Below, piece by piece: positions 35,238 through 61,335 of a stretch of DNA of 64,000 nt. A model generated the notes under the pieces. That model was not told the origin of the DNA. It searched no databases and was given only the letters and a program-made list of their open reading frames with translations. Made by a program: the position numbers and the translations under genes. Each line of letters starts with the position of its first letter. Within the stretch, counting starts at the first letter, position 1. The DNA comes from an uncultured Gemmatimonadaceae bacterium (GTDB taxonomy: Bacteria; Gemmatimonadota; Gemmatimonadetes; Gemmatimonadales; Gemmatimonadaceae), in the NCBI GenBank assembly GCA_963817955.1, contig CAWFQK010000002.1:704001-768000 (forward strand), given 5' to 3'.

Positions 35238-35260
35238 CGAACCGGCACAGCGCGCCGGCC

Positions 35261-35650
35261 TGTCATCCTGAGCGAAGCTTGTCATCCTGAGCGAAGCGAA
35301 GGATCTCGGTGACCGACAGAACAGCTTTTGAACGCAGAGGTCGCAGAGAACTGCAAGAGAGAACTGCAGAGGACTGCAAAAGAGAACTGCAAAAGAAGAC
35401 TGGAAAAGGGAACTGCAAGAGAGAACTGCAAGCGTACGGAAGAGGGAAGCGCGTATCGGTGGAATGAACTGTGATTGCCGAGTCCACAATCATTCCGCCT
35501 ATATCGTTGATGATCCCGACCTGGGCGATACCATCGGAGCGTCACGGCATCATCCACGACTTCCTGGCGAGACAATCCTTCACGGTCCTCTGCAGTTCTC
35601 TCTTTGCAGTTCTCTGCGACCTCTGCGTTCAAAGGCTGTTCTGTCGGTCA
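35261..35650. mobile_element. palindromic GxxExxY-derived element, copy A (internally deleted)
   Basis: REP-like tgtcatcctgagcgaagc x2, arm aacgcagaggtcgcagagaactgc, gagaactgc repeats, leader plus ~20 GxxExxY codons on minus, inverted arm ending at 35650. Confidence 0.8.
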
Positions 35651-36286
35651 GTTCGACAGTCCCTTGGGCCGGCGCGCGAGCGGTACGGGTCGGCTGATCA
35701 CCCCGGCGGGGGCCTCGGCTACCCAGACATCGTTGTCGCGGGCGATCTCCATGAGATCGGCGGGCACGGGCATAGCCGTAGGTCCAAGCATACGGCCGCC
35801 CGGCTTGAGACTCGCACGCAACGACGCGATCATGGCGCTATCCGCCGCTGCGTCAACGGCAACGCCGTCCGCAGTGCCCGGCGCCACCGGCAAGCTATGT
35901 GATAAGACGATGGACACACCGTCGCCACTCACGACGCCGTCAGGCGGGTTGATCAGCAGCAGCTGGGCCGGCGACAGCCCACGCATGATCGGCGCTTGCA
36001 CGCCCCACGCTCCATGCAGCACGGCAGTCATGCGCGCCTCCGTGAGACCGAGCGCTGCGGCCAGGCGCATCGCGTCTGCCTCGGACGGATCGCTCCACGG
36101 AGCCCGGGGCACCGCCGGTGCGAATTCGACGATGCCGTGGTGAATCGGGTATTCGGCGAGACACGTGGGGCACCCGAGCGTACCCTCCTGAATGTCGCGA
36201 TCCTCGATGCGGTCCATCGACGCGACGAGCCATGTTTCCTCATGCACATTGAGACAACGAAGGAGGTCGACGAGCGGAATGAACAC
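35648..36286 (-). CDS. Trm112-like N-domain fused to a degenerate methyltransferase-like domain
   Basis: LVDLLRC...EGTLGCPTCLAEYPIHHGI; C-terminal LKPGGRML. Confidence 0.65.
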   Translation of the reverse strand: MFIPLVDLLRCLNVHEETWLVASMDRIEDRDIQEGTLGCPTCLAEYPIHHGIVEFAPAVPRAPWSDPSEADAMRLAAALGLTEARMTAVLHGAWGVQAPIMRGLSPAQLLLINPPDGVVSGDGVSIVLSHSLPVAPGTADGVAVDAAADSAMIASLRASLKPGGRMLGPTAMPVPADLMEIARDNDVWVAEAPAGVISRPVPLARRPKGLSN

Positions 36287-36294
36287 GGTTCGGC

Positions 36295-37017
36295 TCAGCT
36301 GTGGGAAAGGCGAAGCTCGTCGACGTTCACGTCGTCCGGCTGCATGACCACGTAGCGGACGGCCGCGCCGACCGCCTCGGGCGAGAGCATCTGGCGCCGG
36401 GGCGTGAAGCCCGGTCGGACATCCGGATCGAACGCGTCCCAGAGCGCCGTGTCCACCGGCCCGGGCGAGACCAGCGTGGCACGCACGCCGCTGCCTCGCA
36501 GCTCGGCGCGCAGCACCTCGTGCAATGCCCGCACGCCGAACTTGCTCGCGGCATACGCGCCGTTCTCCGGAAACGTGGTGCGGTCGGCGACCGAACCGAT
36601 CGTGATCACGTGCCCGCTCTTGCGTGCTCGCATCTCGCTCAGAAACTCGTGAACGAGCAGAAAGGGCGCCACGAGATTCACATCGAGCGCGCCTCGCAAC
36701 GCGTCGGCAGATGTCTGTTCTACCGTGGCGAGCACAAAGCGCCCGGCATTGTTGACCAGTACATCCGGCGCGCCGCTGCACATGACGCGAATATCAGCGG
36801 CGGCGCGGTGCACCTCGCGTTCATCGGCGACGTCGCACGGGAGCGGCACGGCGCTCGCGCCGAGCGCGTTGGCGTGCGCGCGCAACGCGTCGCGGGAGCG
36901 TGCCAGCATGATCACGCGCAGTCCGGCGTCGACGAGCGCGCGCGCGATCTCGAGGCCGATGCCGCGCGATGCGCCGGTCACCACGGCCGTGCGGCTCGTG
37001 GGAAGGGGTGTCGTCAT
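36295..37017 (-). CDS. SDR oxidoreductase
   Basis: TGASRGIG, NNAG, YAASK, VSPGPVDT. Confidence 0.92.
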   Translation of the reverse strand: MTTPLPTSRTAVVTGASRGIGLEIARALVDAGLRVIMLARSRDALRAHANALGASAVPLPCDVADEREVHRAAADIRVMCSGAPDVLVNNAGRFVLATVEQTSADALRGALDVNLVAPFLLVHEFLSEMRARKSGHVITIGSVADRTTFPENGAYAASKFGVRALHEVLRAELRGSGVRATLVSPGPVDTALWDAFDPDVRPGFTPRRQMLSPEAVGAAVRYVVMQPDDVNVDELRLSHS

Positions 37018-39135: not shown

Positions 39136-39198
39136 CTGGTGCTAATGGCCTTCGCGAAGGTTCGGTGACACGGGGGACACGGGTTACATGGGGGATGG

Positions 39199-39773
39199 GA
39201 CACGAGACACGCGAAGCGCTGTCATCCTGAGCGAAGCGAAGGATCTCTGGGAACGATAGACCAGCTTCTGAACGCAGAGGTCGCAGAGAACTGCAGGAGA
39301 ACTGCAAGAGAGAACTGCAAGAGAGAACTGCAAGAGCGAACTGCAAGAGCGAACTGCAAGAGCGAACTGCAAGAGAACTGGAAAAGGGAACGGCAAAGAC
39401 AACTGTAAGCGTACGGAGGACGGAAGCGCGTATCAGTGGAATGAACCGTGAATGCCAAGTCCACAATCATTCCGCCTGCAGCGTCAATGATCCCGACCTG
39501 GGCGATACCATCGGAGCGTCACGACGACATCAGCCCAGTCTTCCAGGCGAGACAATCCTTCGCAGTCCTCTGCAGTTCTCTTGCAGTTCTCTTCTCTGCG
39601 ACCTCTGCGTTCAAAAGCTGGTCTATCGTTCCCAGAGATCCTTCGCTTCGCTCAGGATGACAAGCTTCGCTCAGGATGACAAGCTTCGCTCTGGATGACA
39701 AGCTTCGCTCTGGATGACAGCGCTTCGCTCCGGATGACAGCGCTTCTCGTGTCTCGTGTCTCGTGTCTCGTGT
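39199..39773. mobile_element. palindromic GxxExxY-derived element, copy B (internally deleted)
   Basis: Nested inverted arms; about five 19-bp gcttcgctcaggatgacaa-like units and (ctcgtgt)n on the right; GxxExxY stub on minus at ~39438-39492. Confidence 0.8.
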
Positions 39774-52590: not shown

Positions 52591-53052
52591 TGTCTGTCAT
52601 CCTGAGCGAAGCGTGTCATCCTGCGCGAAGCCTGTCATCCTGAGCGAAGCGAAGGATCTCTGCGACCAAAAGAACAGCATTTACCACAGAGCGGCCCAAC
52701 AGCTTTTAACGCAGAGGTCGCAGAGAACTGCAGAGAACCGCAGAGGACCGTGAAGGATTGTCTCGCCTGGAAGTCTTGGATGATGCCGTCGTGATGCTCC
52801 GATGGTATCGCCCAGGTCGGGATCATTTAACGATATGGCGGAATGATTGTGGACTCTGCAATCACGGTTCATTCCACCAATACGAGCTTCCCTCTTCCGT
52901 ACGCTTGCAGTTCTCTATTGCAGTTCTCTTCTGCAGTTCTCTTGCAGTTCTCCTGCAGTTCTCTGCGACCTCTGCGTTCAAAAGCTGTTCTGCCGGCCAC
53001 AGAGATCCTTCGCTTCGCTCAGGATGACAGGCTTCGCGCAGGATGACAGACA
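52591..53052. mobile_element. palindromic GxxExxY-derived element, copy C (deleted; opposite orientation)
   Basis: Three REP-like units left, two right; stub atgattgtggactctgcaatcacggttcattcc on plus; ~25-nt insertion in the left arm. Confidence 0.8.
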
Positions 53053-58901: not shown

Positions 58902-59885
58902 ATGAGCGGAATCGACGCGATAAAGACTGGAGAGGCATCAGAGCTCGCGGGCGAATTTCTCGATGCCTCTGCAGCGTATCAATCGGCGCTCACCGACGCC
59001 GATCCACTCGTCGTCGCCGATGCACGCTTTCACCTCGGGCGGGTCAGCTGGCGCCAGGGCCGATACGACGAAGCGGTGACGCACTATGACGCCGCGCGCA
59101 TCGTCACCATGCAGTTGGGCGCGAACAACCTTCGCGCGCGTGTGGAGAACGGACTCGGGGTGGTCCACCACGCGCGCGGTGCGTATGCGCAGGCACGCGC
59201 CAGCTACGCGGTAGCGCTGGACATGACCAGCGACCCGGTACAGCGCGGACGCGTCATGCTCAACCTGGGCGCCATCGCCAACATTGAAGGCGACCTCGAG
59301 AGCGCGCGGCTTCACTACGCGAGGAGTCGCGCGCTCTTTCAAGAGTCCGGATACCGCCGCGGGGAGGCACTTGCCCTGCACAATATCGGTATGCTGCACG
59401 CCGACCAGCAGTCGTGGGACGAAGCCGAAGAAGCCTATCGCCGCTGCCTCGAGCTGCTCGAGCAGGAGGGCGACCGGCAAATGATCGCCAACGTGCTGCT
59501 CAACCGCTCGGAGGTGAGCTGTGCACGAACGCGGTACGACGAGGCGATCGCAAACTGCGATCTCGCGCTATCGATCTACTCCGAGATCGGCGATGAGGTG
59601 GGCCGCGGCGAGGCGCTCCGATGGAAGGGCCATGCGCTTTGGCACCTACCGCGGTTCGAAGAGGCCGACCGAGCGATATCCGATGCCATCCGGATCGCGC
59701 ATCGGACGCAGGTCAAGCTGCTCGAAGCGGAAGCGTCCCGCGACCTCGGCGCCAGCCGCGCGGCGCAACGGAATTGGTCGGGTGCCCGCAAGGCGCTCAC
59801 GCGCGCGCTGGTACTGTTCGAGGAGCTCGGCGCGCAGCGCGAAGTCGCGGACGTGCGGGCCGAGTTGGGGCAGCTTGGCTCCTGA
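58902..59885 (+). CDS. TPR-repeat protein
   Basis: Repeated NLG/NIG ... EA..Y..AL units. Confidence 0.85.
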   Translation: MSGIDAIKTGEASELAGEFLDASAAYQSALTDADPLVVADARFHLGRVSWRQGRYDEAVTHYDAARIVTMQLGANNLRARVENGLGVVHHARGAYAQARASYAVALDMTSDPVQRGRVMLNLGAIANIEGDLESARLHYARSRALFQESGYRRGEALALHNIGMLHADQQSWDEAEEAYRRCLELLEQEGDRQMIANVLLNRSEVSCARTRYDEAIANCDLALSIYSEIGDEVGRGEALRWKGHALWHLPRFEEADRAISDAIRIAHRTQVKLLEAEASRDLGASRAAQRNWSGARKALTRALVLFEELGAQREVADVRAELGQLGS

Positions 59886-60591
59886 GAGAAGCGAAGGATC
59901 TCGATGAACGGCGCAACAGCTTTTGAACGCAGAGGTCGCAGAGAACTGCAGGAGAACTGCAGAGAACTGAAAAAGAGAGCTGAAGGGGGAAGTGTGGGGG
60001 GGCGCTAGAGGCGATTCGCCACGCGGATGATCCCATCTTTCAGTTGCGCAACGTGGAAGTTGATCAACAGGCCAACCTGCCGATTGCTCAGTTTGAGTTG
60101 GGACAGCAATTGGGCTTTGTGGACCAGCAGGATCTTCGCGGCCGCCTTGACCTCGACGATGACACATTCCTCGACCAGCAGATCTATCCGATAGGCCAGG
60201 TCGAGTTCCACGCCGTCGTACACGAGGGGCATGGGAACCTCGCTGCGAACGTTCAGCCCGCGTTTCCGTAGCTCGTGCGCGAGGCAGACGTGGTATGCGC
60301 GCTCCAGCAACCCGGGGCCCAGCGCGGAATGAACCTTGATTGCCGAGTCCACAATCATTCCGCTCACCTCGTTGATGGTCACGACACGAGCGATACCATC
60401 CGAGCGTCACGAGAGCGTCATCCAAGAATTCCAGGCGATACAATCCTTCACGGTCCTTTGCAGTTCTCTGCAGTTCTCCTGCAGTTCTCTGCGACCTCTG
60501 CGTTAAAAAGCTGTCGCGCCGTTCATCGAGATCCTTCGCTCCGCTCAGGATGACAGGCCTCGGAGATCCTTCGCTTCGCTCAGGATGACAG
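59880..60591. mobile_element. complete palindromic element, copy D, with ~90-bp inverted arms enclosing GxxExxY
   Basis: 59880-59969 is a near-perfect reverse complement of 60461-60550; extra REP half at 60563-60591. Confidence 0.8.
60005..60382 (-). CDS. GxxExxY protein (PD-(D/E)XK nuclease superfamily)
   Basis: LGPGLLERAY; YRIDLLVEECVIVEVKA; GLLINF. Confidence 0.93.
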   Translation of the reverse strand: MTINEVSGMIVDSAIKVHSALGPGLLERAYHVCLAHELRKRGLNVRSEVPMPLVYDGVELDLAYRIDLLVEECVIVEVKAAAKILLVHKAQLLSQLKLSNRQVGLLINFHVAQLKDGIIRVANRL

Positions 60592-60669
60592 GCATCATGT
60601 GTCCCGTGTCGCCCTGCGGAGCATGCCCTCGAGCTTGTGACTCCTGTCCAGCACTATTTCAACAGGCTG

Positions 60670-61335
60670 CTAACCGCGCGTCGTATACGCCAGGGTGAGG
60701 AATTCCTCTCGCGTACGCGGATCGGAGCGGAAGAGGCCCCGTAGCGCGCTCGTGATGGTCTTGGAGCTCTGCTTCTCCACGCCGCGCATCATCATGCACA
60801 GGTGGTAGGCCTCGATCACCACGCCCACACCCATGGGGTTGAGCACGTCCTGGATTGCCGTGGCGACCTGCTCGGTGAGTCGCTCCTGCACCTGAAGTCG
60901 CCGGGCGAACACTTCGATCAGCCGCGGAATCTTGCTCAGGCCGACGATCTTGCCGTTCGGGATGTAGGCAATGTGCGCGCGGCCGTAAAATGGCAGCATG
61001 TGGTGCTCGCAGAGGCTGTACAGCTCAATGTCGCGCACCATGACCATGTTGCTCGCGCCATCCGCGTCGAACAGCGCTCCATCGACGATATGAGCGACGT
61101 CCATCTCGTAGCCCCGCGTGAGCCACGCCAGCGACGTCGCGACACGGTCTGGCGTGCGCAACAACCCCTCGCGGTCGGGATCCTCGCCAAGTAGCTCGAG
61201 CTGGCGCCGCACCAGATCGCGAAACTCGTGGTTCGAGGACCCACTCTCAATGAACTCCTCGGGGGAAGCGGTCACGGAATCTCCGGTGAGGGGCATTGAA
61301 TCTTGCATGGTTTCTCGAGGGACGTGGCTGCTCAT
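60670..61335 (-). CDS. folE: GTP cyclohydrolase I
   Basis: [46 protein letters not shown]. Confidence 0.96.

Follow-up and report, generated by a model that had tools for sequence, protein, structure and literature searches.

The 14-mer studied here is the most variable part of the mirror-image arms of a putative selfish cassette that carries a nuclease gene. Four loci (A, B, C and D) in the analysed window, a 64,000-nt stretch of an uncultured Gemmatimonadaceae genome (G000:C2:704001-768000; other loci are named by contig and position), are copies of this palindromic cassette around a gene for a 125-aa PD-(D/E)XK 'GxxExxY' nuclease. The two arms of one copy are alike, and we put at about even odds (a probability near 0.5) the reading that they became so by DNA-level copying onto each other.

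Re-reading of the sequence reproduced the coordinates and letters that the preliminary description had given for all four loci. In each locus a constant GGATCTC is followed by 14 variable bases, by CAGC, by a T-rich linker and by arrays of CGCAGAG, a 7-base word spaced 9-13 nt, and the whole order is mirrored 240-600 nt away. The block pattern gave nine matches in the window compared with 2.36 expected (0/100 shuffles). Locus B (39186..39773) is a gene-less palindromic insertion with outer repeat layers, recognised by its inverted repeats and hairpin fold. There, GGATCTC-TGGGAACGATAGAC-CAGC lies at 39241-39265 (+) and at 39617-39641 (-), and the two 14-mers agree at 14/14 positions. The left arm of B (39220..39290, +) comprises the outer module, the 14-mer (39248-39261), the CAGC linker and the first heptamers; the right arm (39592..39662, -) carries its 14-mer at 39621-39634, and these 71-nt arms are 99% complementary. 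The interior (39395..39560, -) aligns to the 5' end of intact genes and represents the first codons of a GxxExxY gene since lost, with the region upstream of them, and tandem 19-20-nt units of the GCTTCGCTCAGGATGACAA type (39645..39741) stand outside the right arm. Tandem 13-nt units of the AGAGCGAACTGCA type were also found within the arms of B (39283-39380), in a number that varies between arms.

Locus A (35258..35650) is a gene-less copy with GGTGACCGACAGAA in its left arm (35308-35321), while its right arm retains TGACCGACAGAA (12/12) and then departs from the repeat, truncated at the TGA of an ORF at 35648..36781 (-). In locus C (52600..53050), likewise gene-less, TGCGACCAAAAGAA (52661-52674) faces TGTGGCCGGCAGAA (52988-53001) with 9/14 matches, and transitions make up four of the five mismatches; the arms of C are out of register because the left one has an additional 26-nt unit. 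Locus D (59880..60669) bears the gene, its 14-mers GATGAACGGCGCAA (59903-59916) and GATGAACGGCGCGA (60514-60527) agree at 13/14 positions, and its right side extends to a terminal repeat (60657-60669) abutting the stop codon of GTP cyclohydrolase I. Pairwise comparison of the 14-mers of A, B and D gave 5, 5 and 8 differences, within the range of 5-8 claimed before. The TGA that opens the retained right-arm 12-mer of A (35648-35650) is the stop of the ORF at 35648..36781 (-), and the TGA in CCTGAG of the left outer module of D (59883-59885) is that of a TPR gene at 58902..59885 (+); in both loci an arm is truncated exactly at the TGA stop of the neighbouring gene.

The orthologous site of B, flanked by a gene for a CitMHS-family transporter and by a small ORF upstream, held element blocks in 0/9 stretches of same-genus genomes (flanking genes ~75-79% identical), and the spacing there was 280-620 nt shorter. 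Judged from these alignments, B is a real insertion. Across the whole genome, the 19-nt arm core occurred 100 times (<=3 mismatches), giving 44 paired loci and 12 unpaired arms. In the full form the gene lies between inverted arms of CGCAGAG heptamers, the T-rich CAGC linker and the outer repeat layers; two copies are intact (D included) and ~42 are gene-less. A 166-nt internal remnant, comprising the gene upstream region and first codons, was present in 38/44 loci at ~80-90% identity to B, which points to descent from one multiplied deletion derivative. By this alignment a single deletion, common to the ~42 copies, appears to have removed the gene, with A, B and C among the gene-less derivatives. 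The tree of the internal region (32 rows) was star-like, with one starred branch out of 29, and owing to this shape it is silent on a repeated origin of the symmetric loci, the pair C4 1412995/C2 676282 aside.

The block stood on both arms in 10 of the 44 paired loci and was absent from one or both arms in the other 34; an 11th regular-expression match was dropped as false. Of 33 orientable loci, 16 had the outer module solely on the arm upstream of the gene and 4 solely on the downstream one; 9 had it on both arms, and 4 lacked it altogether. An asymmetric subfamily, S1, occupied 3-4 sites or more with a 14-mer that faces unrelated sequence (6/14), and its spread means that a paired 14-mer is not required for spread.

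The intact gene in D (60005..60382, -) encodes 125 aa. Its product matched TIGR04256 'GxxExxY protein' with 134.1 bits over residues 6-120 (cut-off 35) and PF13366 PDDEXK_3 with 129.7 bits (cut-off 22), and the GxxExxY motif reads GLLERAY at residues 24-30. The catalytic D ... E-x-K signature of PD-(D/E)XK enzymes was present, and G22, P23, E27, D67, E77 and K79 were invariant among 30 aligned relatives. The predicted structure (pLDDT 95.5) showed a restriction-endonuclease-like alpha/beta core, with Cas4 SSO0001 as the best structural neighbour (Foldseek E 2.1e-3; VIA Z 7.9, rmsd 3.5, 100 aligned), followed by BpuSI, BglII and Hjc (Z 7.8, 7.0 and 6.6); the best neighbours were all PD-(D/E)XK nucleases. 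On this model the protein is a plain PD-(D/E)XK nuclease core. We rejected assignment to one subfamily, such as the junction resolvases, with Z values of 5.5-7.9 distributed among Cas4, restriction enzymes, Hjc and further proteins. A sequence search of the PDB with the D protein gave no match. By tblastn, the genome has two intact GxxExxY genes, 96% identical to each other, in D and at C2 315678-316052.

Small genes of the GxxExxY (PF13366) type occur commonly in a range of bacterial phyla, and the function of PF13366 is entered as 'Unknown' in PMC3424549. Our search of the literature on GxxExxY and PDDEXK_3/PF13366 found no account of a palindromic cassette. All 31 genus genomes searched had GxxExxY genes, and inverted heptamer arrays flanked the gene in 14 of the 16 gene-bearing loci aligned, with one type of word (CGCAGAG, CACAGAG or CGCAAAG) per locus. 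The words in loci L041-L054 of the genus, CGCAGAG, CACAGAG, CGCAAAG and CGCGGAG, went with cassette lineage and were identical on both arms. A word shared by both arms and differing among lineages suggests that the heptamer co-evolves with the enclosed protein.

The 14-mer itself is composite. The outer module GAGCGAAGCGAAGGATCTC (<=2 errors) occurred 112 times in the genome, followed by many unrelated sequences that usually start TGTGACCGG..., and the initial ~5 bases of the 14-mer (TGTGA, GGTGA) continue this generic module, which also exists without the cassette. The final 8-9 bases (CGATAGAA, CGGCGCAA, CGGCCCAA, CGACAGAA) precede CAGC also in arms that lack GGATCTC, where they follow another CGCAGA word within a 26-nt unit present 0-3 times. 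The 14-mer is therefore a junction zone and no unit: from the pattern of these recurrences, it would be the meeting point of the generic module (...GTCATCCTGAGCGAAGCGAAGGATCTC-TGTGA) and the variable end of the cassette (CGNNNNAA-CAGC). Differences between loci are visible only here because this is the least constrained stretch.

This composition bears on the suggestion that the 14-mer is a locus-specific tag, which did not survive. Alleles recur: TGTGACCGATAGAC was found on 6 arms, TGTGACCGATAGAA on 4 and GGTGAACGGCGCAA on 3, and the allele of A occurs again at C2 838622. Symmetry is confined to 10/44 paired loci, two of which break the rule, and only B, C2 827294 and D have alleles private to one locus. 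An inverted 'target duplication' was considered and rejected, the private 14-mers being found nowhere else in the genome; we know of no insertion chemistry that yields inverted target copies. A spacer- or guide-like role was likewise set aside after the genome search, which gave no second copy outside the arms.

Outward of the module follow tandem 19-nt units and then GACACGA-type repeats; a terminal repeat, present at about a dozen loci, forms the outermost layer. In the S1 copies, homology ends at CAGACTGTTGAA... on both sides, and their 19-nt GCCTGTCATCCTGAGCGAC unit is present in 2 to 6 copies (C4 1348099-1348300). The terminal inverted repeat CAGACTGTTGAA(A/C) has 29 sites genome-wide that bound about a dozen composite elements, among them 60657-60669 of the window, C2 676139/676718, C2 511878/512713 and C4 1672104, where a ~110-nt 'empty' version of the shell occurs. 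YTRR (TTAG, CTAA, TTAA) precedes nearly every copy, and the repeat often abuts the true stop codon of a neighbouring gene, e.g. that of GTP cyclohydrolase I at 60670. The flanks of the repeat showed an identical TTAG at 2 loci and differed in at least one of four bases at 4 others, and none of the 6 DDE_Tnp_1 genes in the genome was linked to it. The outermost shell looks like a MITE with the cassette as cargo, presumably affiliated with the IS5 family, which prefers YTAR targets. A second abundant short repeat, containing GGATGTCGCTGGCTGCTCCGTA, has 110 sites (e.g. C4 396273 and C1 420642), has no ORF of its own and often stands immediately after the outer GGATCTC module. A literature search for a 20-nt piece of the outer module gave no paper.

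The central claim of the preliminary description, that the 14-mer is unlike between loci and alike within them, was borne out genome-wide: over 10 symmetric loci, identity was 0.907 within and 0.615 between loci (0/20000 shuffles), so the comparison named beforehand as a possible refutation came out with within-locus identity the higher. Over a 71-nt segment the partner was the nearest of ~54 arms for 11 of 20 arms, and uniquely so for 9. There were exceptions, namely C6 84701/85005 (8/14), C4 753060 (11/14) and C (9/14). Likeness is not peculiar to the 14-mer: over their whole length the two arms of a symmetric locus differed at ~3-13% of positions, with from 3 to 18 mismatches in 104-152 aligned bases. 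The outer 27 nt were 0.756 identical within and 0.654 between loci (p 0.037), and the inner 45 nt 0.767 and 0.704 (p 0.07); this small excess in the constant blocks arises because they scarcely vary between loci. The 9-nt linker adjoining the 14-mer was unlike between the arms in 9/10 symmetric loci.

The same pattern appeared in an alignment of 10 gene-oriented loci with 69 arm pairs and 682 cells. Results showed that 95.3% of the cells pair, a figure that fell to <=45% when the partner was slid by 1-3 columns, and that 15/69 arm pairs had changed on both sides, 11 of them in 14-mer columns, compared with 8.3 +/- 1.4 in shuffles (0/500). Related rows may beat shuffles even without any structure, and since kinship can inflate covariation, these figures indicate concerted arms and not a selected fold. 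Derived states shared by both arms exceed what independent evolution would give, so that the arms were either selected for pairing or copied mutually. To that extent the earlier inference holds; its further element, that the arms physically pair, does not follow, since the fold speaks for capability. As a single strand, B (39186-39773) gave a fold of -183.3 kcal/mol (z -16.6) that is one long hairpin, which shows that arm pairing is possible and no more.

Selection for base pairing would account for such data if transposition through a single-stranded DNA intermediate, or a cassette-spanning RNA, required a stem, with compensatory mutations following. The high proportion of paired cells, the 15 pairs changed on both sides and the long hairpin are in its favour, and it has a precedent in the REPIN spacers, which remain able to form hairpins and in which compensatory changes on either side are common (PMC3116915). 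Sense-strand G-U-type mismatches, 51 compared with 27 antisense among 32 oriented loci that are not independent (~47 and 27 once two sister copies were left out), speak for it as well, and this excess could reflect either a constraint on an RNA or mutation with a strand bias. We nevertheless regard pairing selection as rather unlikely. The G-U excess was not replicated in a sister family of cassettes, whose copies could hardly be oriented (2 sense, 5 antisense and 8 transversions; with only 3 gene-bearing among 34 loci orientable, too few to weigh). Arm mismatches in the 32 oriented loci comprised 62 transversions and 78 transitions, and with transversions at 62/140 they look unselected, unlike those of a stem under pairing selection. 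The absence of the both-arm block from 34/44 paired loci and the presence of S1, with its 6/14 facing, at 3-4 sites also tell against a required stem. Rfam gave no match at gathering score across the whole 64-kb window, which is a further point against an RNA stem and leaves room for an undescribed RNA.

The evidence that carries the copying reading lies in rare changes found on both arms of one copy. At C2 806778 an extra A in the heptamer array (GAGAAACTGC) was present on both arms and absent from the other 98 arms, and at C4 1412995 both arms had a 15-nt version of the segment (TGTGGGCGTATAGAC and GAGCGCAAGCG) together with a base inserted in the outer module. Such private 1-base insertions mirrored on both arms are poorly explained by stepwise compensation. 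Read as events, ~7-8 rare variants were mirrored compared with ~13 on one arm only; the raw column counts (11 versus 83) are inflated by register shifts and by the extra unit of C. A patch replacement was also seen. In the arm lineage marked by the linker CAGCATTT, three of the four loci (C6 85005, C4 1328845 and C2 1069804) have GGTGAACGGCGCAA or TGTGAACGGCGCAA, while C6 111495, of the same lineage, has TGCGACCGACAGAC between identical flanks, with 8 clustered differences and a 13/14 match to its own partner; eight clustered changes in a single patch fit poorly with selection for pairing. Mosaic copies occur in addition. The interior of C4 1412995 is S1-type and near-identical to the asymmetric C2 676282 (its sister, support 100/95), and both its arms are of a type found on one arm of C2 931283; C4 1352903 combines an S1-type left arm (95%) with an inverted interior segment that is only ~81% alike. 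In the left arm of C4 1412995, a 40-nt tandem duplication (C4 1412932-1413011) covers the outer module, 14-mer and CAGC, with a CTGAGCG/CAGCTG microhomology at its junction.

Mirrored indels, the patch and the mosaics favour DNA-level copying over stepwise compensatory mutation, and together with known template switching they led us to rank copying first. In a single step, template switching between the arms of inverted repeats can produce several matched changes, bulges copied from one arm to the other and spacer inversions (PMC8794818), and it is also described as a source of simultaneous matched changes in PMC8604942. From the inverted repeats, the co-variation, the mirrored private substitutions and insertions, the patch and the mosaics, all of which are observed, we infer how copying works, that the arms pair physically and whatever part the nuclease may play. 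The likely routes would be template switching or gene conversion between inverted repeats ~300 nt apart, which a hairpin or cruciform, or a break cut by the nuclease of the element itself, might promote. Each new arm variant would then be either erased or mirrored, and recombination anchored in the constant blocks would also shuffle modules between copies. Template switching at replication, RecA-type conversion or repair of nuclease-made breaks may each be the route taken.

Several observations weigh against copying. No conversion event could be polarised with certainty; the patch of C6 111495 possibly came from another locus, C2 144819 having the identical 14-mer; and the mosaic C4 1412995 can equally be an internal replacement within an old symmetric shell. 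Unlike 14-mers persist in C6 84701/85005 (8/14), linkers differ in 9/10 loci, the within-locus excess of likeness outside the 14-mer is weak, and the sense G-U excess points the same way.

The mirrored variants would be older than the cassette, and later copying between arms unnecessary, if the outer module had been a prior hairpin repeat with halves already matched and the cassette had landed in, or homed to, its centre. The 112 copies of the module beside many unrelated sequences fit such nested insertion, as does its presence in same-genus genomes without this cassette type. Solo hairpins have stems prolonged beyond GGATCTC by locus-specific complements (e.g. GATCGC...GCGATC and TTTCTG...CAGAAA), and C6 84701 and C6 111191, two sister cassettes, have unlike shells around them that are each symmetric for private variants of their own. 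Cassette orientation is variable inside one shell type, and insertion sequences that target REP hairpins are reported in PMC1525189. Against this, a 14-mer-like sequence was found in 0/8 distinct solo hairpins (exact-match scan, 31 genomes), and the 3' 8-9 bases of the 14-mer must be part of the cassette, as they are also found in arms that lack the outer module. A mirrored private variant lies within the cassette's own heptamer array (C2 806778), and GACGAAA stands on both arms of C8 63213/63476, a locus without the outer module. The B site was empty of the shell as well in 9/9 relatives, whose flanks (only ~75-79% identical) are too distant for the order of shell and cassette insertion at B to be read. 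We give nested insertion on its own a low probability; it may well have acted together with copying.

Homogenisation of the arms by an assembler or polisher, or a handful of subfamilies each descended from a symmetric master copy, could in principle imitate the effect, and two allele classes, GACCGAYAGAM and GAACGGCGCAA, do cover much of the difference between loci. This is the least probable of the explanations considered, and we think it very improbable. The arms are not uniformly perfect, with 3 to 18 mismatches per 104-152 bases, unlike the outcome of a blanket homogenisation; the genome resolves into 9 contigs of 4.5 Mb in total despite >100 copies of several repeat families, which suggests long-read assembly; private alleles on both arms of B, C2 827294 and D are left unexplained by two common classes; and the effect recurs in five other assemblies.

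This recurrence was seen in the sister family, which has the linker GAACTACTCAACGCAGAGG and is present in 16/31 genus genomes. The sample was 34 paired loci, taken as plus/minus pairs <600 nt apart among the matches listed. In the 30 nt outside the linker, edit distance was 12.97 within and 15.74 between loci (0/20000 shuffles), and when shuffling was restricted to within genomes (29 loci, 5 genomes) the values were 12.45 and 14.22, reached by 27/20000. Private variants were mirrored in L103, L109, L113 and L123, and many sister-family loci are asymmetric too. The concerted-arm effect thus recurs in a second family, which supports arm-to-arm copying. At L112, L115, L118, L129 and L133, the segment outside the linker often consists of tandem 6-base units (CAACTG, CAACGG, CAACCG) and not of unique sequence.

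Among known systems, the closest precedent for the 14-mer is the REPIN spacer (PMC3116915). REPINs likewise have conserved inverted ends around a less conserved, pairing-capable stretch with matched changes, a predicted long hairpin, a location outside genes and higher-order mosaic arrangements, and many gene-less copies exist alongside one or two repeat-flanked enzyme genes. The cassette differs in its enzyme, a 125-aa protein of the PD-(D/E)XK fold and not an HUH/Y1 transposase. Y1_Tnp (PF01797) had no match in this genome (94% complete), the control giving matches in 6 of 14 genomes, and a cassette in a genome without a Y1 transposase is therefore not a REPIN-RAYT system. In the cassette the palindrome also encloses the gene, 7-base words spaced 9, 13 and 26 nt apart make up the arms, and the putative mobile units measure 240-600 nt compared with ~100 nt for a REPIN.

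Quasipalindrome template switching, as described in PMC8794818, PMC8604942 and PMC7202029, resembles the cassette data in its clustered changes, copied bulges and 'instant' compensation; arms of imperfect inverted repeats become matched, with spacer inversion as a by-product. The cases reported there concern mostly short stems and loops, whereas the cassette arms are 70-130 nt long and ~250-500 nt apart, a distance at which RecA-type gene conversion is equally plausible. BIMEs, mosaic intergenic repeats and MITEs share with the cassette modular short repeats, a variable number of tandem units and intergenic location, and the outermost layer may also resemble them in its terminal inverted repeats with putative short target duplications (TTAG, two loci). 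The inner unit of the cassette, unlike theirs, derives from and coexists with a nuclease gene and not a known transposase. What is new is the concerted evolution of arms with tract-like events; REPIN spacer compensation and inverted-repeat homogenisation are its known kin.

A more far-reaching interpretation, which we consider quite improbable, is that the variable segment is a self-recognition code. With ~50 near-identical copies per chromosome, and a segment that adjoins the putative nuclease-binding arrays, a private self-complementary stretch might see to it that each end pairs with its counterpart in that copy and not with an end elsewhere in the chromosome. Pairing could take the form of a hairpin or cruciform, with the PD-(D/E)XK nuclease cutting alongside and triggering copying that renews the code. 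If this were true, each copy would have a bar code that is inherited, repairs itself and keeps harmful rearrangements between copies in check.

The concerted evolution of the arms is a handle on the behaviour of GxxExxY elements and points to an interaction of the arms at the DNA level. Paired arms, or a hairpin or cruciform carrying the heptamer arrays, are suggested as substrates for the protein in vitro. The case is also a caution for covariation-based RNA discovery: a strong signal here probably comes from DNA copying and not from a selected RNA.
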